Origin: a virus
Strand: one strand, 5' to 3'
DNA length: 37,156 bases
IMG/VR virus record: IMGVR_UViG_3300048913_000063
Coordinates: 1-37,156 of that record
In this document: positions 2,456-35,970 of the stretch, piece by piece
Layout of the letters: each line of letters opens with the position of its first letter
How positions within the stretch are numbered: the first letter of the stretch is position 1
Notes under the pieces: generated by a model
Told to the model about the DNA's origin: nothing
The model's input: the letters and a program-made list of their open reading frames with translations, nothing else
Database searches by the model: none
Made by a program: the position numbers and the translations under genes

Positions 2456-2475
2456 TTCAGGCTCCTATTATTGAT

Positions 2476-2491
2476 GCGCCCCGAAGGGCGC
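2476..2491 (-). promoter_or_regulatory. GC-rich tetraloop hairpin between two early genes (RNA stabiliser or processing site?)
   Basis: GCGCCC-CGAA-GGGCGC on plus, giving a UUCG loop on the minus-strand RNA. There is no U-tract, so it is not a classical terminator. Confidence 0.4.
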
Positions 2492-2498
2492 GGAGTCG

Positions 2499-2663
2499 TT
2501 ATTCAGAAGGATATGACATAGATGGCAGTTCGCTTTTATTACTATTGCACCAAGCTACGAACTGATCTTTGATGTAGACGGATGGGAAGCGAATCATTTC
2601 ACCATCAAACCAACCGCCAAGTTCTTTAACTTTTGCCCGCAACGCTTTTTCTTTGGCATCCAT
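2499..2663 (-). CDS. Hypothetical 54-aa first gene of the leftward operon
   Basis: Track ORF 2499..2843, trimmed to the ATG downstream of the predicted leftward transcription start sites (MDAKEKALRAKVKELGGWFDG...). It is preceded by AAGGGCGGGAA. An ATG at 2678 is an alternative start. Confidence 0.45.
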   Translation of the reverse strand: MDAKEKALRAKVKELGGWFDGEMIRFPSVYIKDQFVAWCNSNKSELPSMSYPSE

Positions 2664-2714
2664 TTCCCGCCCTTTCATTCCCGCCGCGCCCCATGCGCTG
2701 CATCCATGCATAGA

Positions 2715-2756
2715 ACTATAGCGCACAACAATACGTTCCGCAAGAACTATTTGCAA
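2715..2756 (-). promoter_or_regulatory. Two overlapping leftward sigma70-like promoters
   Basis: Minus strand: TTGCAA (2756-2751)-N17-TATTGT (2733-2728), and TTGCGG (2743-2738)-N17-TATAGT (2720-2715). Confidence 0.5.
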
Positions 2757-2778
2757 CGCCCCGGAAGAACGAAATATG

Positions 2779-2836: not shown

Positions 2837-3073
2837 GTGACACGAACTAAAGGCCCAAAGAAACCGCATGCTTTGTTAGATGCGCTTCTTTCAGAGAATC
2901 GTCTACGTAACGATTCCCATCTGGCAGACGAAATAGGCTATACCAAAGGCCGTATCTGCGAATATAGAAATGGAACACCAATGAGTGCAGAATTCATCTT
3001 GACGATCATGCGCAAATTTGGATGGTCGCTGAAGAAAATCGATTCATTACTAGCCGAATCAAAGGAGAAATAG
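2837..3073 (+). CDS. Cro/XRE-type helix-turn-helix regulator (78 aa, GTG start)
   Basis: Track ORF. ...NDSHLADEIGYTKGRICEYRNGTPMSAEFILTIMRKFG fits the XRE HTH pattern. It is the first gene of the rightward operon, divergent from the leftward promoters. Confidence 0.65.
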   Translation: MTRTKGPKKPHALLDALLSENRLRNDSHLADEIGYTKGRICEYRNGTPMSAEFILTIMRKFGWSLKKIDSLLAESKEK

Positions 3074-3602: not shown

Positions 3603-4045
3603 CCGTCCCCAAGCGCATATTCTTCCTCCGTGAAGAGCGTAACCGCGATACCTTGCTAGGGCTTATCAGGAATTTGCCGCTGGATCAGGATAAGCCTATG
3701 CAGGTAACTGTCGAGCCTTATAAGCGGCCACGTAAGCTTGACCAAAATGCCCTTTACCACGCGGGGCCGCTGAAAGATATCGCAGAACAACTATTCATTG
3801 AAGGTCGCCAATACAGTGCAGAAGTCCTGCATCGATACCTGAAAGAGCAATTCCTCCCCGAAGAATATATTGAGGATGAATGTCTGGCAGGTTATCGGAA
3901 GTGGGATTACGACCCATCAGGTAATCGTGTTCTGGTCGGCAGTACAACACAATTGACGGTTCGCGGATTCAGTATATTTCTTGAGCAGGTACATGCATTC
4001 GGGGCAAACATGGGCGTTGAATTTCACACACGCGAGGAACGATGA
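3599..4045 (+). CDS. ninB: NinB/Orf-like recombination mediator
   Basis: 148 aa. ...QVTVEPYKRPRKLDQNALYH...DIAEQ... and ...STTQLTVRGFSIFLEQVHAFGANMGVEF parallel lambda NinB (VVTIQERNRSLDQN...; STSRMRVGEFAELLELIQAFGTERGVKW). Sits next to ninG. Confidence 0.7.
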   Translation: MTVPKRIFFLREERNRDTLLGLIRNLPLDQDKPMQVTVEPYKRPRKLDQNALYHAGPLKDIAEQLFIEGRQYSAEVLHRYLKEQFLPEEYIEDECLAGYRKWDYDPSGNRVLVGSTTQLTVRGFSIFLEQVHAFGANMGVEFHTREER

Positions 4046-6074: not shown

Positions 6075-6493
6075 TCGCACCAGGCGCAGAAGAGATTTTT
6101 AAGGCTCGTATGAAAGGGTTCAAACCTGCTGATACGGTGATTGTCAGCCTTGTTGGCAAACTAGGTTTTGAAAACCCCCAGTGCCATCCCGCGCCGGGCC
6201 AAGATTACGACTGGCGGTGGTGCAAGGCTCTTGATGTAGTAGTGTTCATGGACTCCAGTTCTGATTGGGCCGCATTGCTGCCGAAGATCAAGATTTGCGA
6301 GCCTAGTGGACTGTACATTTGGGCGCATGACATGAAGCGCGGAGCCGAAGTGATGGTAAAGCCGGTACAAGCAATCAGCGGAAGCCGGAGCACAATGCTG
6401 CTTGATGATGGCTCGATCCTGAAAGACGGTTGGCGCTGGGTTATCGATTTCTGTAACTGGCACGAAGAAGACGAAAAGGCATTTACGCAATGA
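6071..6493 (+). CDS. Hypothetical 140-aa protein (position suggests a helicase loader or accessory)
   Basis: Track ORF, coupled at both ends (ATGA overlaps) between the initiator and the helicase. No motif recognised. Confidence 0.5.
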   Translation: MIAPGAEEIFKARMKGFKPADTVIVSLVGKLGFENPQCHPAPGQDYDWRWCKALDVVVFMDSSSDWAALLPKIKICEPSGLYIWAHDMKRGAEVMVKPVQAISGSRSTMLLDDGSILKDGWRWVIDFCNWHEEDEKAFTQ

Positions 6494-7377
6494 ACATCAT
6501 TCACGACAACATAGATTTCAGTGGTTACATGGAAGAAACAGAAAGCCATGCTGTTTATCCTGCTTCGCACTGGTTACAAGAAACGATTGAGGCATTTCAT
6601 TCTGATGCGCCCGAACTGAAATCGCCAACAATGCTTTGGACTAAGACACATGGACGTGTTCATTTCCGTCCTGCCGAGGTTTCTCTTTGGGCCGGAGTGA
6701 ATGGGCATGGTAAAAGTATGTTTCTCTCCCAGGTGTCGCTAGACCTCTGCCAGCAAGGTCAGCGTGTCATGGTGGCATCTTTTGAAATGAAGCCAGTTCG
6801 TCAGATGCAACGCATGGGCCGACAAGCTTACGGTGATAGCAAGCCGAGCGTTGAATTCCTGAATCGCATGGCAAGCTGGTCAAATGAACGTCTTTGGGTG
6901 TATGACCATGTCGGCGCGGTCGAATGGCGCAAGGTCATAGCTGTTATGCGTTATGCGAAGAAGAATTTTGGCATTGAGCATTTCGTGATTGATAGCCTGA
7001 TGAAGTGCGTAAAGGGTGAGGACGATTACAACGCTCAGAAGGATTTCGTGAATGAGCTTTGTGCCTTTGCGCATACGCACAATATTCACGTTCATTTGGT
7101 GCACCACGTTCGCAAGGGTGAGAGTGAGCATAAAGCACCTGGCAAATTCGACGTAAAGGGAGCCGGAGCGATTACAGACCAAGTGGACAATGTCTTCATC
7201 GTTTGGCGAGATAAAAAGGCTGAGGACGACGTTTCAGCGGTTCATAACGCACAGCTTGTATGTGAGAAACAACGTAACGGGGAATTTGAAGGCAAGTTTG
7301 GGTTCTGGTTTGAACCATCCTCGCAACAATATCTCGACAATCGTTCTGCAATTCCGATGCGTTATTCACTAAAGTGA
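6490..7377 (+). CDS. DnaB-family replicative helicase (RecA-fold C-terminal domain only)
   Basis: 295 aa. Walker A GVNGHGKS, Walker B HFVIDSL, ...LVHHVRKGE...KGAGAITDQVDNVFIVWR... matches the DnaB/RepA-like hexameric helicase core. Confidence 0.75.
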   Translation: MNIIHDNIDFSGYMEETESHAVYPASHWLQETIEAFHSDAPELKSPTMLWTKTHGRVHFRPAEVSLWAGVNGHGKSMFLSQVSLDLCQQGQRVMVASFEMKPVRQMQRMGRQAYGDSKPSVEFLNRMASWSNERLWVYDHVGAVEWRKVIAVMRYAKKNFGIEHFVIDSLMKCVKGEDDYNAQKDFVNELCAFAHTHNIHVHLVHHVRKGESEHKAPGKFDVKGAGAITDQVDNVFIVWRDKKAEDDVSAVHNAQLVCEKQRNGEFEGKFGFWFEPSSQQYLDNRSAIPMRYSLK

Positions 7378-7384
7378 GAATGCT

Positions 7385-7603
7385 ATGCCCTACTCAATCC
7401 CCGGTCGAATAGGAAGAGAAGAAGCAGCACAAGCCTGTCTCCAAGTATTGCGATATGCAGACAAAGACAGGCTAGCAGTAGATGATGTGAGGCAACTGGA
7501 GATTTACTCTCTGATTGCAGGAGAGAAGCGAGACATGCGCCCATTATCCGATGGGGCATTGTTGAAGATAATGCAGATTTACAACAACTATCATGGAGTG
7601 TGA
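7385..7603 (+). CDS. Hypothetical 72-aa protein
   Basis: Track ORF; no motif recognised. Confidence 0.5.
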   Translation: MPYSIPGRIGREEAAQACLQVLRYADKDRLAVDDVRQLEIYSLIAGEKRDMRPLSDGALLKIMQIYNNYHGV

Positions 7604-31426: not shown

Positions 31427-31460
31427 AAAAAGCCCCGTCATATCAGGGGCTTTCTGCTTT
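31427..31460. terminator. Bidirectional intrinsic terminator between convergent genes
   Basis: AAAAAGCCCC-gtcatatca-GGGGCTTTCTGCTTTC. It has an A-run on one side and a T-rich run on the other. It sits between the 31426 stop (+) and the 31474 stop (-). Confidence 0.7.
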
Positions 31461-31473
31461 CTGGGCGATATTA

Positions 31474-31899
31474 TCAGTTGCCCTGACTCGTCGCGGCATT
31501 ATATGCGCCACAGCTATCATTTGCAGTACGAGTAGTGACACCATAGTTGAACTGGCTCAGCCCCGCAGAGCAGGTAATCTGCGCATTATGTGTATTGGCA
31601 TATTTGGTGCTCGTGCCAAGTTTGAAGAAGCCATTAACCTGTGCTTGCGTAGCCATTTTCGTATAGGTTGCATTGCCTGGATCAGCATATGCAGTCACGA
31701 CAGCGACGGGCTGGCCATTTGCATCTACGCCAAACTTCGTTACATGAACTTCGCTTCCTACTCGATCAAAATCAATAGCACCTTCAATTGTGATACCAAC
31801 ACCAGTTGGCGTCTTGAAATTGTTATTCAGTGGCGCAGCGTAAGCATTACTGAAAATCATTGTAATTGCTGCAAATGTTGCACAGATAATCTTCTTCAT
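31474..31899 (-). CDS. Secreted/periplasmic 141-aa protein (moron-like)
   Basis: Sec signal peptide MKKIICATFAAITMIFSNAYA/AP. Two Cys in the mature part. RBS AAGGAG. Has its own terminator and is separated from the upstream gene by a 78-nt spacer containing a hairpin. Confidence 0.7.
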   Translation of the reverse strand: MKKIICATFAAITMIFSNAYAAPLNNNFKTPTGVGITIEGAIDFDRVGSEVHVTKFGVDANGQPVAVVTAYADPGNATYTKMATQAQVNGFFKLGTSTKYANTHNAQITCSAGLSQFNYGVTTRTANDSCGAYNAATSQGN

Positions 31900-31977: not shown

Positions 31978-33354
31978 TCAGTTGTCTTCCTCTACCTGCT
32001 GGAGCGGTGCTGCGCGGTACAGTGCAACAGCAGCGCGCATCGCCGACAATACTTCCTGAGCCTCACTGCCGCGAGATATGCCGGTCTTGCCTTCGCTGTA
32101 GGCGATGTTCCAGTACTGGCCGATCAATTCTTCAATATCGTCTGGAAGCTGCCCACCCTCTAACGTGGCCCGACGCCCGCGTGCACGATCGAGTGCCGCT
32201 TTTTTGCGCGTGTCTTTCTCATGCTCGGCAATCAGGTCCTGAATGCTGATGCCGCCCTCTGGCGTGGCTTGCGCAGGTCCAGCATCAGCAGCAGCACGTA
32301 GTTCCTTGATAAGCTCGTTCGTGCCGATTTCCTGCTTCCAAAGCGGCGATTCCCAGCGCTTGATTACGTTCTCGATGGCAGGACGTAGACGCGAGATGTA
32401 ATTCGCATAATCAAGCATGTTGCGGAAATCTTCTGGGCGCTTCACTGGCTGTGTGACTGCATCGGTGGCGCTGACCGCTTCCTTGATGACGCCGGTATCG
32501 CGCAGCACCTTCTCGGCTTGTGCTTCAGGCAGCGCGCCGGGCAGGGCGAGTGCGGCAAGGTGATCGGCGTCAGGTTTGATGCCTTGTTGTGCCGCCCATG
32601 CAACGAGGTTCCCTACCTTGCAGTCGCAGCGCTCAGGCGGGCATGGGATGAAGCAGTGCTTGTCCATGATCGTGCGCGGCATCAGTGGCATGAGGTTTTC
32701 AGCTTCCTTGGCTGGCTCTTGCTGTGCAGGCGAGAGAAGTTCATCAGCAATCGTCCACCACTCTTGCAGAACGTCCTTAGCCTCCATATCAGCACGTATC
32801 TGGCGAAGTACGTCCAGCCCAGCCGCTTGCCTTTCGGCGATGGCCTTGAAGTGGGCGCACATGGTTTTAGCCTTGGTAATTTGGTCGCGCAACTGGTGTA
32901 TCAGTTCTTGATTCGCTTCGGCACACGAATCCCAGCCAAAGTGCCTTGCCTCTTCCCTATCCTTTTCGCGCACGGCTTCGATGTGGGCATATACGGCTTT
33001 TGCTTTTTTTGCGATACTCCGGGTCGTGCTTCCTTTCTTCTGGCATTCCAAGCCCAGGTCTTGCATCAGCCGAATAAATTCTGCGTCGTTGACAATGCTC
33101 TCTGCTTTGCCAGAGGTGATCTGGCTTTCGGTGGTGGTGGACGCCGGGTCAATTTCACCTTCTTTGGCGTAGACGTGCTTGAAGATTGCTTCGGCCATCG
33201 TTTCAGCCTGATCGTGCGTCAATACGATGCTGGCGAAGTCACGGCCGCCGTTGCCCCGCGAGCGCACCGAAACCTTGATAGCATCGCCCTCCGCGCTCAG
33301 GTTGACGAAGGCCGGATAGTCGTTGTGTAGTTCGGTAAATGCGTGGATAGTCAA
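31978..33354 (-). CDS. Large modular hypothetical protein (458 aa, TTG start), Ea22-like coiled-coil style
   Basis: Track ORF 31978..33495, trimmed to the TTG after AGGGAGAACGAA. The upstream part of the ORF overlaps the preceding gene. Charged and helical; no catalytic motif recognised. Confidence 0.55.
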   Translation of the reverse strand: MTIHAFTELHNDYPAFVNLSAEGDAIKVSVRSRGNGGRDFASIVLTHDQAETMAEAIFKHVYAKEGEIDPASTTTESQITSGKAESIVNDAEFIRLMQDLGLECQKKGSTTRSIAKKAKAVYAHIEAVREKDREEARHFGWDSCAEANQELIHQLRDQITKAKTMCAHFKAIAERQAAGLDVLRQIRADMEAKDVLQEWWTIADELLSPAQQEPAKEAENLMPLMPRTIMDKHCFIPCPPERCDCKVGNLVAWAAQQGIKPDADHLAALALPGALPEAQAEKVLRDTGVIKEAVSATDAVTQPVKRPEDFRNMLDYANYISRLRPAIENVIKRWESPLWKQEIGTNELIKELRAAADAGPAQATPEGGISIQDLIAEHEKDTRKKAALDRARGRRATLEGGQLPDDIEELIGQYWNIAYSEGKTGISRGSEAQEVLSAMRAAVALYRAAPLQQVEEDN

Positions 33355-33380
33355 TTCGTTCTCCCTTAATGAACGGGTGG

Positions 33381-33812
33381 TTATTTGACGGTCGTGAGCG
33401 AGCGCGCCCGAGTCGGCACTCCGCGCACAATGTCTTCCGGTAGCAGCGGTTCGGAGCAATGGGGGCAGAGCGGAACTGTCTTGTGCTTTCGCCACTCGGC
33501 ATCCATAACGCGCGCCGCACGGCTTACCAGCGTGGCGGCTTCCGCCTCAACGATCTTGTTTTCGCGGTCTTGCAAGCGCTTCACTTGACGGTCGAAGTTC
33601 TCCACCAGAACAGTGAACGCATCGAATGCCTCAATGGTGGCTTCGCAGTCGGCGCACCACACGCGCCGCTCTTCCTGGTCATAGTGCATGCTCTTATGCG
33701 CGCAGGTGCCGATTGGCCGGCGCGACTTGCCGCGCTTGACCCGCGCATCGCCGATGTCCACCACCTTCACCCCGTAGAGGTAATCCAGTGGCACGATGGG
33801 AGCGTCAGCCAT
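33381..33812 (-). CDS. Hypothetical 143-aa protein with CxxC...CxxC zinc-finger-like pairs flanking a coiled coil
   Basis: Internal ATG (MADAPIVPLDY...) overlapping the upstream stop (ATGGCTGA). Contains WCADCEA... and ...LCPHCSEP. Confidence 0.5.
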   Translation of the reverse strand: MADAPIVPLDYLYGVKVVDIGDARVKRGKSRRPIGTCAHKSMHYDQEERRVWCADCEATIEAFDAFTVLVENFDRQVKRLQDRENKIVEAEAATLVSRAARVMDAEWRKHKTVPLCPHCSEPLLPEDIVRGVPTRARSLTTVK

Positions 33813-34017
33813 GATCCCCCTCCGCAGCCTTACCGGCTTCTTGAGTGGTGCGCATTGGGCATTGCATGATCCAGCCCGCAGCCCATGCTCTGCGCGCCCA
33901 TTGCGGCCACTCAAGGCTCGATGCGCGGCCCTGACTTATGCCTAGACCACGATCCCGCGCGCTGCGTCCCATGGCCTCGAAAGCTCGTTTTCCGGCGAGT
34001 GGCTTAGTCATGGTCAT
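33805..34017 (-). CDS. Hypothetical 70-aa basic protein
   Basis: Internal ATG of track ORF 33805..34065 (MTMTKPLAGKRAFEAMGRSARDRG...RRAWAAGW...). Overlaps both neighbours. The ribosome-modulation-factor resemblance is weak (see rejected list). Confidence 0.4.
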   Translation of the reverse strand: MTMTKPLAGKRAFEAMGRSARDRGLGISQGRASSLEWPQWARRAWAAGWIMQCPMRTTQEAGKAAEGDHG

Positions 34018-34564
34018 TCCCCGCTTTATCAGCGCTTTGCGCGAGTTGAGCGGCGCGGGCAGCACGGATGATCGGCGCCAGCTTTAGCTCGGCCATCTTG
34101 TCGGCCCAGTCCGTCGCTGTGTCGTCAGGGCTGTAAAGCTTCATGCAGGCGAAGCGCACGTCGTTGGCAACCGCATGGAATTGCTGATCGATGCTCGCTG
34201 TGTCCTGCTCTTGCGCTGGAACCTGTTTAGCAAGAGCGGCATCAATGGCCTCCAGTGCATCGTCAGCAACACGCGTGACGCCGCAATCGCCGTCCCAGCC
34301 AAATTTCCAGACCGATATCTTCTCCAGTGCCTCACGTGCGGCCAGGATCGCTTTGTTCAGATCAGTCATCTGCACTACTGCCGGAGCGGGAGAGGTGGCA
34401 GCCTTAGCGATAGCGGCCAGTTCAGCGACTGCGTGGCGGTGCCAGGCAGCATGCCACGCCTTGTGCATCAGATCGACCGGGAAGGGATATTCCCCTTCGA
34501 TAGCATATCCTTCGCGTGCCGCCCAAGCTTCAAACTCAGCGCGGCATTGTTTTTTGTTGTCCAT
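34004..34564 (-). CDS. Hypothetical 186-aa protein
   Basis: Track ORF 34004..34573. The ATG at 34564 overlaps the upstream TAA (TAATG), and GTG 34573 is an alternative start. N-terminal ...CRAEFEAWAAREGY...HKAWHAAW motif is common in prophage early regions. Confidence 0.5.
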   Translation of the reverse strand: MDNKKQCRAEFEAWAAREGYAIEGEYPFPVDLMHKAWHAAWHRHAVAELAAIAKAATSPAPAVVQMTDLNKAILAAREALEKISVWKFGWDGDCGVTRVADDALEAIDAALAKQVPAQEQDTASIDQQFHAVANDVRFACMKLYSPDDTATDWADKMAELKLAPIIRAARAAQLAQSADKAGNDHD

Positions 34565-34773
34565 TATTTCCACGCTCCATAAGCCGCCAGGGCCTTCGAC
34601 AATTCGGGATGCTCGCCGAAGTCCTTGATGTTATTTTTGATGTCTTTCCGGCTCATCCAGAGCCATGCGCCGTCAGGATCGATTTCTACGCGAGCGGCTT
34701 CGACACTGCGCATTGCGCGGCGCTCGTTGAATTCGATGAAGCGCCAGTGCTGTGGCTGGTTGTTCATGTCCAT
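34564..34773 (-). CDS. Hypothetical 69-aa protein
   Basis: Track ORF with RBS GAAGGAAGAATA. Confidence 0.5.
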   Translation of the reverse strand: MDMNNQPQHWRFIEFNERRAMRSVEAARVEIDPDGAWLWMSRKDIKNNIKDFGEHPELSKALAAYGAWK

Positions 34774-34785
34774 TATTCTTCCTTC

Positions 34786-35430
34786 TCAGATGGTTGGGTG
34801 GCGGGGGATGGCTGGCGGTAATTCTTTCCAGTCACGACCATCGTTGATACTGACCGTACCGATCTTGGTAGGGTCATCGTAGTTGATCGGATACGCGCAT
34901 TCGCCGAATTCACGCTTGCCGACGTTGCGCCACATCATAGGGCGGCCGTCGTCGTGCTTGCCCTCTTCGTAGACCAAGCTGCAGCCTTTGTAGAGGAAGA
35001 AGAACTGTTCGCCGATCTTCACGCCCAACTCGCCGTTGTCATTTGTGATCCACTGCACCTGTTCGCCGGTCATCTGCACTACGCCGCGTTGCATCAGCGA
35101 CCAGACATAGGTGTAGATGGCTTGCTCGGCAGCTTTCGGCTCTGCGCCAAACTGGCTACCGGCGATATCCACGACATTCATGTAATCTTCTATCTTTTGC
35201 AGTAGCTTGTTCCAGGCATCGCCCTGATAGCCCAATACATCCAGTTCTTCTGGCGATGGCACCGGTACTGCTGCTTTGGCTTCTGCCCTAACTGCATCAA
35301 CAATCGCACAAAGCACTTCCAATCCGTTCTCAGCATTCTTGAACAGTTCCCAGGCTTCGCATTGACCGTGCTGGTGGATAAGAGCGCATACGTCGGCGAT
35401 TTTCTCACTGTATGGGTCGAAGTCAGTCAT
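34786..35430 (-). CDS. Hypothetical 214-aa protein
   Basis: Track ORF. Its start overlaps the HTH gene by 8 nt. No motif recognised. Confidence 0.55.
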   Translation of the reverse strand: MTDFDPYSEKIADVCALIHQHGQCEAWELFKNAENGLEVLCAIVDAVRAEAKAAVPVPSPEELDVLGYQGDAWNKLLQKIEDYMNVVDIAGSQFGAEPKAAEQAIYTYVWSLMQRGVVQMTGEQVQWITNDNGELGVKIGEQFFFLYKGCSLVYEEGKHDDGRPMMWRNVGKREFGECAYPINYDDPTKIGTVSINDGRDWKELPPAIPRHPTI

Positions 35431-35602
35431 GGCTCTGCTCCTTTGCCTTTTGTTCTTCTAGTCGCTTACGTGCGCGATAGATCGTGGATTGATTCACTTT
35501 GTGCTTCTTCGCCAATTCAGTATCACTCGGCTTTCTATCTTCCGGTGCACGCTGATATTGACGCATGGCAGCTTCTACTGCTGCACTTGTTTTCCCTGTC
35601 AT
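35423..35602 (-). CDS. Small HTH DNA-binding protein (59 aa; Aca-like/excisionase-like candidate regulator)
   Basis: Below the track cut-off. ATG 35602-35600 follows a strong RBS (ACAGGAGGAAGTA). MTGKTSAAVEAAMRQYQRAPEDRKPSDTELAKKHKVNQSTIYRARKRLEEQKAKEQSHD contains the HTH core ELAKKHKVNQSTIYRARKR. Confidence 0.6.
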   Translation of the reverse strand: MTGKTSAAVEAAMRQYQRAPEDRKPSDTELAKKHKVNQSTIYRARKRLEEQKAKEQSHD

Positions 35603-35653
35603 TACTTCCTCCTGTTATTAGTTTTGATGTTCCCTGTGAATTGCGCTGAGTTG

Positions 35654-35845
35654 TTAGGAGGCATCTAATATACGGTCGATAGCTGCCAGAAGTTCTCGGC
35701 GAGTCGCGCCATATAGCGGAATGCCCTTGACCTTACGGCACGACTGATAATGGTCGCTGTAGCCGCGCAGACGGTCAACGCGAGTGAACTCTACGCCGCG
35801 ATATTCAAAGTCGCCATCGTCCAGCTTAGTAACCTTGTGTGCCAT
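35654..35845 (-). CDS. Hypothetical 63-aa protein, first gene after the promoter/operator cassette
   Basis: Track ORF (MAHKVTKLDDGDFEYRGVEFTRVDRLRGYSDHYQSCRKVKGIPLYGATRRELLAAIDRILDAS) with RBS AAAGGAAAAG. Confidence 0.55.
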   Translation of the reverse strand: MAHKVTKLDDGDFEYRGVEFTRVDRLRGYSDHYQSCRKVKGIPLYGATRRELLAAIDRILDAS

Positions 35846-35893
35846 GATCTTTTCCTTTCATCCTCGTCGGCCGCTCGCTGCGTCCATGTAGAA

Positions 35894-35944
35894 ATAATAG
35901 CTCACGCTAATGCACGATGCAAGAAATATTTATGCACGTTGCAA
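35894..35944 (-). promoter_or_regulatory. Strong sigma70-like promoter TTGCAT-N17-TATTAT with a duplicated 13-bp element TTGCA(A/T)CGTGCAT
   Basis: Minus strand: -35 at 35922-35917, -10 at 35899-35894. Repeat copies lie at 35944-35932 and 35922-35910, 22 bp apart (two helical turns). The proximal copy overlaps the -35. Confidence 0.6.
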
Positions 35945-35970
35945 AAAAAGACCGCCATCTAGACGGTCTT
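35943..35970 (-). terminator. Intrinsic terminator ending the recombination sub-operon
   Basis: Minus strand: AAGACCG-tctagatgg-CGGTCTT followed by T7. It starts 6 nt after the 35976 stop. Confidence 0.75.

Follow-up and report, generated by a model that had tools for sequence, protein, structure and literature searches.

Aca proteins, 60–65 aa on average, contain a single helix-turn-helix (HTH) and act as repressors at one or two inverted repeats, of which one lies within the core promoter (PMC9410906), and genes downstream of aca within one operon have been documented (PMC13551039). In lambda, genes of the exo-xis region, ea22 included, affect lysogenisation (PMC7093339, PMC3824215). A third type of described system is the phage accessory region, where conserved flanks (recombination genes and a lysis cassette) surround orphan cargo of fast turnover (bioRxiv 10.1101/2023.04.06.535777). 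The locus described here belongs to an uncultivated lambdoid-style phage of about 37 kb, where it forms the distal portion of the leftward early arm. It shares features with all three, and we interpret its sequence as that of what is probably an autoregulated accessory-gene hotspot with acr-aca-like architecture. The whole stretch analysed (37,156 nucleotides, hereafter the window) was compared with 13 related metagenomic loci. On its minus strand, a terminator, two operator-like sites and a promoter are followed by eight co-oriented genes (g1–g8). At the level of sequence, the comparison establishes the anatomy of this unit, its conservation, its cargo turnover, its mosaicism and the link between HTH protein and operator. 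The features are:

35943–35970, minus strand: intrinsic terminator, end of the upstream recombination-gene transcript (hairpin 35970–35948 and T-run)
35932–35944, minus strand: putative operator O1, TTGCAACGTGCAT, partially palindromic, its centre about 51 nt before the inferred start
35910–35922, minus strand: putative operator O2, TTGCATCGTGCAT, overlapping the -35 hexamer TTGCAT (35922–35917) and the spacer
35894–35899, minus strand: -10 hexamer TATTAT of promoter P1, 17 nt past the -35 (TATTAT or TATAGT there in relatives)
35846–35888, minus strand: leader (5' UTR), related to a conserved sequence that follows three types of promoter
35654–35845, minus strand: g1, 63-aa orphan protein encoded in the variable slot before the HTH gene (ORF list)
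35423–35602, minus strand: g2, 59-aa HTH protein and proposed autorepressor, with an AGGAGG ribosome-binding site
34786–35430, minus strand: g3, 214 aa, three modules, 8-nt overlap with g2
34564–34773, minus strand: g4, 69-aa orphan protein (ORF list)
34004–34564, minus strand: g5, 186-aa mosaic protein with the internal junction motif SPAPAVVQMTD, containing ATGACTGA
33805–34017, minus strand: g6, 70-aa ORF filling a gap, start and stop codons coupled
33381–33812, minus strand: g7, 143-aa putative zinc-binding protein (phrog_8538, E = 2e-33)
31978–33354, minus strand: g8, 458 aa, mosaic and largely helical, TTG start (33354) behind AAGGGAG
31474–31899, minus strand: g9, 141-aa signal-peptide protein of low G+C, last gene of the unit
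31433–31448, minus strand: terminator-like hairpin at the unit end, facing the convergent lysis genes (terminator scan)
2660–2775, minus strand: paralogous promoter P2, with a leader in common with P1 and without O1/O2

Much of this anatomy had been proposed in a sequence-only reading of the window. All eight ORFs occur in the ORF list at the lengths given there, the recombination genes upstream of the cassette encode an SSB-like protein (phrog_743) and a Sak4-like annealing protein, and the intrinsic terminator was called by the scanner (9 pairs and a T-run; fold -13.8 kcal/mol, z = -4.6), its hairpin being kept in relatives with differing stem sequences. A ninth gene in the g1–g8 transcription unit, g9 (31899–31474), had been overlooked. 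The six genes behind the HTH gene, described as overlapping, are only partly so: there are overlaps at g2/g3 (8 nt), g4/g5 (1 nt), g5/g6 (14 nt) and g6/g7 (8 nt), whereas gaps of 12 and 26 nt separate g3/g4 and g7/g8.

The duplicated 13-bp repeat was also found as described. The window contains no exact copies other than TTGCAACGTGCAT and TTGCATCGTGCAT, whose starts are 22 bp apart, one lying over the -35, and the TTGCAWCGTGCAT site has no further occurrence in the window. Each copy is a partial palindrome, self-complementary at 8 of 13 positions, while the L006 operator, TTGCATCATGCAA, is a near-perfect one (12/13). O2 is centred about 29 nt before the inferred start, a position suited to repression. 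Promoter P1 consists of the -35 TTGCAT (35922–35917), a 17-nt spacer and the -10 TATTAT (35899–35894). These elements are kept in eight other loci, but the claim that the promoter is strong is unproven, because it matches the consensus at 8 of 12 positions and was not called by a consensus promoter scanner. As only three of the six -35 positions match, P1 could depend on an activator instead. The leader copy of the window is the most diverged of the conserved set, and its hairpin is weakly supported.

The regulatory unit is conserved well beyond this phage. Nine P1-type loci, the window and eight others, share the terminator, O1, O2, the -10 and the leader upstream of a member of the g2 family (53–59 aa), while the orphan genes in front of the HTH gene differ from locus to locus, which upholds and strengthens the earlier analogy to acr-aca architecture. 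O2 was found in all nine; O1 is conserved in the window, L005–L008, L013 and L015 and variant in L010 and L014. The regulatory region of about 140 bp is about 80% conserved throughout, and therefore operator conservation alone amounts to weak footprinting. Across the roughly twelve metagenomic loci sampled, a small set that includes several close relatives, the g2 family occurs together with O1/O2; L011, with an HTH protein 64–67% identical, has a variant operator site, and L001 has an unrelated HTH gene at the equivalent position behind an unrelated promoter. Across these loci, operator type is linked to HTH type. P2 provides a control for operator specificity within the window: the P2 locus of the window and L016 share the leader with P1, P2 shares the promoter skeleton as well, and both are without O1/O2 and without an intact g2 gene. 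L012 possesses the HTH gene, with no P1-type promoter within the 254 bp available upstream.

The HTH motif of g2 is conserved across all family members and its ribosome-binding site is AGGAGG, but library matches are weak (HTH_28 at E = 3.6e-4, below the Pfam cut-off, and HTH_23 weakly). These two best Pfam matches are families assigned to Aca5 and Aca4. Both identities were considered and rejected, hhalign giving Aca4 a probability of 60% across 25 HTH columns and Aca5 one of 3%. No deposited PDB chain, Aca chains included, matched g2 at E <= 5, and the operator TTGCAT-N-ATGCAA resembles none of nine Aca binding motifs (Aca1–7, 9 and 10; PMC9410906).

The likeness to acr-aca operons (Aca1–Aca14) is one of layout. 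They too have a promoter with one or two palindromic sites, one in the core promoter, followed by one to three small, fast-changing genes and a conserved HTH gene of about 60 aa (g2 has 59), and a conserved 5' leader has been reported for Aca1 and Aca2. The cassette differs in that g2 lacks Aca4/Aca5 sequence membership, that no known Acr is present, and that the HTH gene, unlike that of a classical operon, is not the last but is translationally coupled to about 4 kb of further cargo. From phage accessory regions it differs by its conserved internal unit (promoter, operators, leader, HTH), which splits the region into two slots, and by an exchange that spans phages of differing G+C.

The first slot, in front of the HTH gene, holds zero to three genes per locus. 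Among the 17 proteins encoded there, which form 15 unrelated groups, no member of a functionally characterised family was found, and none matches a known Acr or anti-defence family. For g1 itself no family was found in any library searched, and its one relative (82% identity) is the first gene of an operon in L017, a contig of 65% G+C.

The second slot is variable too. The flanking Erf/SSB and lysis genes stay in place from phage to phage, but downstream of the HTH gene each phage has its own cargo, that of the window being completely different from those of its sister phage L005 and of the other loci. It opens with g3, composed of an N-domain (aa 1–57) that in seven loci comes next behind the HTH gene, a middle module to aa 118, and a widespread, beta-rich C-domain of about 90 aa (aa 119–208) whose model (pLDDT 78) has no structural neighbour in the PDB; one relative occurs in Burkholderia phage BcepSauron. 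No family was found for g4 in the libraries searched. The coding status of g6 is the least certain of the cassette ORFs, its only match being weak (32 aa, in L004) and its GC3 not raised. In g7, which has 287 representatives among 1.84 billion proteins, the residues C37, H39, C53, C56 and C116-P-H-C119 are 88–100% conserved. Only 17 relatives of g8 were found, and g9 is conserved by position, not by sequence. Positional equivalents in relatives include genes for Ead/Ea22, DUF551, Lar-like, ASCH and PAPS-reductase proteins, an assortment usual among the early accessory genes of temperate phages. The six GC-rich genes are related as mosaics to genes for early accessory proteins of the Ead/Ea22, DUF551 and Lar types or occupy equivalent positions, and so come partly under an outcome named beforehand as one that would count against an anti-defence module.

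The G+C discontinuity suspected from spot counts was borne out by the computed profile, with 0.585 in the block 31978–34800 versus 0.484 +/- 0.031 elsewhere (maximum 0.55; 48% overall). Mosaic acquisition of the block is indicated by this step, by the first 68 aa of g5, 94% identical to an L004 gene, and by a 200-bp stretch of g5 that is 99.5% identical to L016, a contig of 62% G+C. The GC-rich genes are fusions of modules common to phages of 57–65% G+C. Patches of 30–48 bp with 95–100% identity mark the borders between genes and between modules, surrounded by DNA that is otherwise unrelated; a stop/start junction motif, ATGACTGA, recurs, and the g2/g3 overlap runs through it in the window, L007 and L001. 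Such short conserved junctions resemble the boundary sequences of lambdoid mosaics, except that several here fall within reading frames, so that modules borne on separate genes in one phage form an in-frame fusion in another (g5, g8 and g3). For example, the g8 linker TTTESQITSGKAES is the start of separate genes in L005, L014 and L001.

What the cargo does can be read in several ways. An anti-defence role is plausible by analogy, and a tentative case can be made for a true acr-aca-type operon, in which g1 and its slot-mates would inhibit host defences (CRISPR-Cas, restriction), g2 would be a new Aca family limiting expression, and some downstream cargo would serve further counter-defence. Taken together, two palindromic sites in a conserved promoter, small orphan genes that are hypervariable and a conserved HTH protein of about 60 aa form the guilt-by-association signature by which Acrs are sought (PMC9410906), and cargo past aca has precedent (PMC13551039). 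A full Lar restriction-alleviation domain protein is found in the L015 cargo, Lar domains are fused to the g3 C-domain in three proteins, and the L017 operon headed by the g1 relative contains a RadC/JAB-like gene. However, searches of Pfam, PHROGs, NCBIfam, PADLOC and PDB sequences linked no cassette protein to any known Acr, Aca, anti-defence or defence family, the 17 pre-HTH proteins match no known Acr or anti-defence family either, and small variable early genes serve many other purposes too. Of the earlier interpretation, architecture and mosaic acquisition are supported, while membership in an Acr/Aca or anti-defence family is not. We regard it as rather unlikely that the region is instead the counterpart of lambda exo-xis or the P22 ea region (Ea22, Ea8.5, orf60a–63), with early accessory genes that tune phage development (lysis-lysogeny decision, induction timing) or host physiology, not counter-defence. 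Like those regions, this one follows the recombination genes on the leftward early arm, the proteins are similarly small, mostly uncharacterised, mosaic and modular (N-terminal domain, coiled coil, C-terminal domain), and relatives' cargo includes DUF551, ASCH, HNH and Lar-like proteins. The L001 equivalent of g8, P0002, carries PF13935 (Ead_Ea22) and is 99% identical to the C-terminal 95 aa of g8, and in L004 a g8 relative lies just upstream of an integrase gene. Yet g8 itself falls short of the Ead_Ea22 model at E <= 0.1, none of the window's proteins reaches that model, and the window ORFs scanned, which take in a minority of those in its middle, include neither an integrase gene nor a CI-type repressor. 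The lambda region is read from pL and is not known to have a dedicated autoregulated promoter of the g2-cassette kind, whereas the cassette has a terminator-insulated promoter, operators and its own regulator. Lambda exo-xis has also been described as 'highly conserved', while the gene content here is hypervariable, and such extreme turnover in the first gene is more in keeping with an arms race than with developmental control.

Two further readings concern the regulator and the beneficiary. The operators might be read by another regulator (the main repressor, the 78-aa regulator at 2837–3073 or a host factor), with g2 doing a different job such as activating other promoters or acting with the g3 N-domain. 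We consider this improbable, although the promoter skeleton and leader common to P1 and P2 suggest a common regulatory family, L012 has g2 without a visible P1, and the central operator base varies from G to A among loci without a matching recognition-helix change, L014 combining the recognition helix of the window with the other operator variant. The TTGCAWCGTGCAT site is nowhere else in the window, P2 included, so a master repressor would have a single target, and operator sites vanish exactly where g2 is truncated or replaced. It is very unlikely that the cassette is a moron, a phage-borne defence or superinfection-exclusion module guarding the lysogen against other phages. Foreign G+C, its own promoter and terminator and a last gene encoding a secreted or envelope protein are moron-like; on the other side, PADLOC matches carry no weight (best E-values 0.006–0.035), no enzymatic or sensor domains were found in cassette proteins, and the unit sits in the early lytic arm.

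We favour the autoregulated hotspot, in which operator binding and repression are inferences, as is any part that the cargo may play in host takeover or counter-defence. The terminator would insulate the operon from the upstream recombination genes, and transcription would start at the sigma-70-type promoter P1. Translated from this transcript, g2, probably as dimers, would bind the two partly palindromic operators, 22 bp apart on one helix face; occupancy of O2 would cover the -35 hexamer and spacer, turning P1 off after an initial burst (negative autoregulation). Cargo would occupy two slots, one between leader and g2 and one after g2, the latter opening with a gene whose conserved N-domain would be translationally coupled to g2. 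Both may be refilled by recombination at short conserved junctions, an exchange that would reach phages of much higher G+C.

The cassette on the minus strand of this phage joins a regulatory head that is conserved among related loci to genes that are exchanged from phage to phage. Its control elements, last gene and end are as follows.

35970-35948, minus strand: terminator hairpin, then a run of T (dG -13.8 kcal/mol, z = -4.6 against shuffles)
35944-35932, minus strand: operator-like site O1, TTGCAACGTGCAT, directly after the terminator
35922-35910, minus strand: operator-like site O2, TTGCATCGTGCAT, which includes the -35 hexamer TTGCAT
35899-35894, minus strand: -10 hexamer TATTAT, 17 nt after the -35
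31899-31474, minus strand: g9, 141-aa signal-peptide protein, a ninth gene absent from the sequence-only reading
31448-31433, minus strand: terminator-like hairpin that completes the unit, against the convergent lysis genes

Most of what the sequence-only reading had described here holds up, including the terminator with its T-run and the two exact repeat copies, which start 22 bp apart, are the sole ones in the window and of which the second contains the -35. The cassette promoter P1, which had been called strong, is present as an element; its strength is not established, as it agrees with the consensus in 8 of 12 positions and is not called by a promoter scanner. All eight ORFs exist at the sizes proposed, the 458-aa gene (g8) having a TTG start with a good Shine-Dalgarno sequence ahead. 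The last six had been described as overlapping, which applies to four of the gene junctions, while two are gapped by 12 and 26 nt. The suspected step in base composition is borne out by a G+C profile, with a mean of 0.585 in the block 31978-34800 versus 0.484 +/- 0.031 in the rest of the window.

Relatives of g2, the 59-aa HTH gene, are very few (2 among 5.8 billion proteins), and more loci were found by DNA scans; together with the related contig L001, these provided 13 informative loci. The window and eight of them (L005, L006, L007, L008, L010, L013, L014, L015) have a common regulatory unit with a fixed order: terminator hairpin and T-run, O1, a 9-nt spacer, O2 over the -35, the -10, and a leader of ~45 nt. 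The terminator stems differ in sequence between loci with their pairing kept, and the operators read TTGCAACRTGCAY and TTGCATCRTGCAW. O2 of L006 (TTGCATCATGCAA) is self-complementary at 12 of 13 positions, which suggests that the supposed direct repeats are two palindromic operators of the type bound by an HTH dimer; they are two helical turns apart.

The HTH proteins of the relatives are 62-100% identical to that of the window. O1 and O2 are conserved in the nine loci and missing where the HTH gene is absent, truncated or different so that, judged from sequence, operators go with HTH type. In L016 the leader stands behind an unrelated TTGACA-N17-TATGGT promoter, and the HTH gene has been cut off after 22 codons by recombination. 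L011, with an HTH protein 64-67% identical, has a variant operator site. L001 has an unrelated promoter and, at exactly the same position, an unrelated small HTH gene, which overlaps the next gene via ATGACTGA as in the window. The window itself has a paralogous promoter, P2, with the promoter skeleton and leader of P1, without operators and without an HTH gene. P2 (2660-2775, minus strand) reads TTGCGG-N17-TATAGT, carries the ~45-nt leader and lacks TTGCAWCGTGCAT sites; it adjoins a divergent 78-aa regulator gene (2837-3073, phrog_638) and probably heads the leftward early arm.

The leader (GGAYGCAGCG..GGCGCGGCGGGAATGAAAGG) occurs at 35846-35888 (minus) and 2660-2709 (minus) in the window and at 7274-7322 in L016. 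As it is found behind three different promoter types, it behaves as an independent conserved module, with RNA-level control or a nut/put-like role as candidate functions; control at the RNA level has been described for Aca2. A leader RNA hairpin was left out of the mechanism: it is a weak prediction in which a single pair covaries, and the P1 leader of the window fails to preserve it (z = -0.1). Three further elements were seen around these early genes. In L012 the place of the usual promoter, immediately ahead of the HTH gene, is taken by a sequence (100-215) that codes for Gly-Ser-Tyr repeats (GSGYG units). The promoter ahead of the sole relative of g1 (63 aa), at L017 4900-5000, has a perfect palindrome, TAGCAT-C-ATGCTA, resembling the TTGCAT-C-ATGCAA operator; no g2-type HTH gene was found at that locus. 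A GC-rich hairpin with a UUCG loop and without a T-run, GCGCCCTTCGGGGCGC, recurs between early genes of different phages (window 2472-2501, minus; L005 ~3603-3622; L006 3153-3182); it may serve in processing or stabilising RNA, or mark a junction of recombination.

Against this constant head, the gene directly behind the leader is different in almost every locus. The slot ahead of the HTH gene holds 0-3 genes, and the 17 proteins encoded there form 15 unrelated groups, none belonging to a family of known function. In the window g2 lies downstream of g1 on one transcript, and the gene order is the same in L005, L006, L007, L010, L013, L014 and L015. L007 and L008 have HTH proteins 100% identical to that of the window, yet a different first gene. 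The cargo that follows the HTH gene differs in every phage and always ends with a signal-peptide gene and the lysis cassette. This closing gene, of ~140 aa and encoding a signal-peptide protein or lipoprotein, always adjoins the lysis genes and is strongly diverged in sequence (38% identity to L001). Positional equivalents lie at L001 8745-9251, L005 8490-8900, L011 10177-10596 and L012 5110-5520, corresponding to 31474-31899 (minus) in the window, and the product is a candidate surface-modifying or exclusion protein.

We favour a process where P1 would fire early and the HTH protein, building up from the same transcript, would bind O1 and O2 and switch P1 off. The centre of O2 lies ~29 nt upstream of the inferred start, within the core promoter, where a bound protein would repress. 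Aca proteins repress by the same mode (PMC6765145; PMC9410906). What the sequences establish is the layout, its conservation, the turnover of genes and their mosaicism, while operator binding, repression and what the cargo does are inferences.

The cargo looks more ordinary. Only ~10 of 59 cargo proteins of the relatives match Pfam (DUF551, Ead_Ea22, Lar, ASCH, DUF6527, HNH/AP2, PAPS reductase and a TnpB insertion), which is the usual accessory set of temperate-phage early regions. A methylase-like or DpdA-like reading of some of these proteins, made from N-terminal sequences, was dropped as Pfam gave no support. The TnpB gene, with OrfB_IS605 and a Cas12f1-like TNB domain, is an insertion at 6426-7541 in the L001 cargo.

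In the window, searches of the cassette against Pfam, PHROGs, NCBIfam and PADLOC returned only a weak HTH match for g2 and phrog_8538 for g7, and PDB sequence searches with g1, g2, g3 (as a profile), g5, g7 and g8 found no related structure. The 214-aa g3 protein is a fusion of three modules. Its N-domain (aa 1-57) comes after the HTH gene in seven loci, and N-domain plus middle segment form free-standing proteins of 129-133 aa elsewhere. The C-domain (~90 aa) recurs, fused in many different ways, in ~45 further proteins, of which three are Lar zinc-ribbon fusions. Modelled alone it is predicted confidently (pLDDT 78); the model has no neighbour among PDB structures (best E = 3.5), and its sole relative in BFVD is an uncharacterised protein of Burkholderia phage BcepSauron. 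The full-length g3 model was unusable (pLDDT 47). The g7 protein matches phrog_8538, a family of unknown function with 287 representatives, over its full length (E = 2e-33, profile positions 2-125 of 138); C37, H39, C53, C56 and C116-P-H-C119 are conserved at 88-100% in the family, which indicates a putative zinc binder. A search of IMG/VR with g7 gave no locus. The g8 protein has only 17 relatives and does not match the Ead_Ea22 model (PF13935) at E <= 0.1; its mosaic relative in L001, P0002, does (33.6 bits versus a cut-off of 27), the two being 99% identical over 95 aa at the C-terminal end of g8 and 37% identical over 125 aa.

The block is a patchwork. The first 68 residues of g5 are 94% identical to a gene in an unrelated, integrase-bearing contig (L004), and 200 bp of g5 are 99.5% identical to a contig of 62% G+C (L016). 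Where genes or modules meet, otherwise unrelated DNA contains patches of 30-48 bp that are 95-100% identical to L001, L005 and L016 (window 34767-34804, 34521-34568, 34361-34402, 34201-34240, 34007-34054, 33093-33140 and 32815-32858). Several carry an ATGA-type stop/start overlap, and on their sequences they look like recombination linkers. The patch encoding 'TTTESQITSGKAES' is inside g8 but is the N-terminus of separate genes elsewhere, and the one encoding 'SPAPAVVQMTD' includes the ATGACTGA junction motif. L016 (CAZCCK010000010.1) is a 42.7-kb contig assigned, probably in error, to a Woesearchaeota archaeon MAG; it bears bacterial-phage-type genes, namely a large primase/helicase-like ORF, a cytosine-methylase-like ORF, an HNH-AP2 protein, the conserved leader and a g5 homologue. 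A diversity-generating retroelement (bAvd and reverse transcriptase) lies at L004 3808-5987, a few kb upstream of g5- and g8-like genes.

The phage has no close sequenced relative, as neither the cassette nor 20 kb of the window had a megablast match in collections of phage and E. coli sequences. One contig, probably a mis-binned phage, was found when the HTH profile was run against 185,579 species genomes. In its major capsid protein the phage shares ~50% identity with Mx8, Stenotrophomonas phage BUCT555 and a Bradyrhizobium phage. L001 connects the left end of the window to its right end, and a 37,174-bp contig is on record with the proteins of the window, so the window is a permuted and probably complete genome. 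Its layout is lambdoid-like. The small regulator gene at 2837-3073 adjoins the divergent leftward P2; NinB, NinG, an O-like initiator and a DnaB-like helicase lie on the rightward side; and the stretch of the leftward arm that immediately precedes the cassette encodes a Sak4-like annealing protein, an SSB-like protein and one of 120 aa. The leftward early arm also contains a 159-aa ORF (1752-2231, minus) with a basic helical N-terminus, a long serine-rich low-complexity tail and no family match.

The cassette has the architecture of an acr-aca operon, yet g2 falls outside the Aca families with which it was compared. A small HTH regulator lies in one operon downstream of candidate inhibitor genes (g2 after g1), palindromic sites kept with the regulator lie in the core promoter (O2 on the -35, O1 22 bp upstream), and variable upstream genes accompany a conserved regulator. 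A known or demonstrated defence inhibitor was not found among g1 and the scanned proteins of the first slot in Pfam, PHROG, NCBIfam, PADLOC or PDB, and the cassette as a whole matched no known Acr or anti-defence family in these collections. The g2 profile aligned by hhalign to nine Aca4 sequences (HTH_23/KorA-like) with 60% probability over 25 columns, covering the HTH only at 12% identity, so full-length homology was not found; eight Aca5 sequences (HTH_28/HTH_3) gave 2.9%. None of nine Aca binding motifs (Aca1-7, 9, 10; PMC9410906 supplement) is similar by eye to TTGCAWCRTGCAW. A phmmer search with g2 against all PDB chains (E <= 5) returned three unrelated regulators and no Aca entry; structures have been solved for Aca1, Aca2 (PMC9410906) and Aca10 (PMC9410881). 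That the cassette is itself a defence system was rejected, since PADLOC models gave chance-level signals only (E = 0.006-0.035, 11-14 bits).

Among classical systems, the exo-xis region of lambda or the ea region of P22, whose genes influence lysogenisation (PMC7093339, PMC3824215), comes nearest in position and, in part, in related genes. The cassette differs from these in being insulated, separately promoted, hypervariable and, as we propose, self-regulated. The comparative data thus strengthen the acr-aca analogy for the promoter-proximal part and weaken it for the six GC-rich genes, which have the look of ordinary mosaic early accessory genes. An anti-defence function of the cassette is possible, and we hold it to be somewhat doubtful. 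Considerably less probable is a wider reading, in which promoter, operators, leader and HTH gene would be a portable platform for gene capture and expression with a new Aca-like family, its regulator acting on DNA operators and on the mRNA leader; two flanking slots would gather counter-defence genes, moving between phages of hosts of very different G+C via the ATGACTGA stop/start motif and the 30-48-bp linkers. If this were true, the ~15 unrelated first-slot proteins, the g3 C-domain and the putative zinc protein g7 would amount to a collection of defence inhibitors not yet described.

At present the locus is a lead rather than a result, its relatives being all metagenomic. It is a clear natural case of module exchange between phages of differing base composition, and its junction sequences at times fuse modules in-frame, which bears on how phage accessory proteins arise. 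Should the cargo tune phage development instead, the locus would still be an example of an exo-xis-like region that forms an operon with its own regulation. Should g2 prove to be an autorepressor and the first-slot genes to encode defence inhibitors, the locus would offer ~15 unrelated candidates that no current database recognises, and a new regulator-operator pair as a handle in the search for more.
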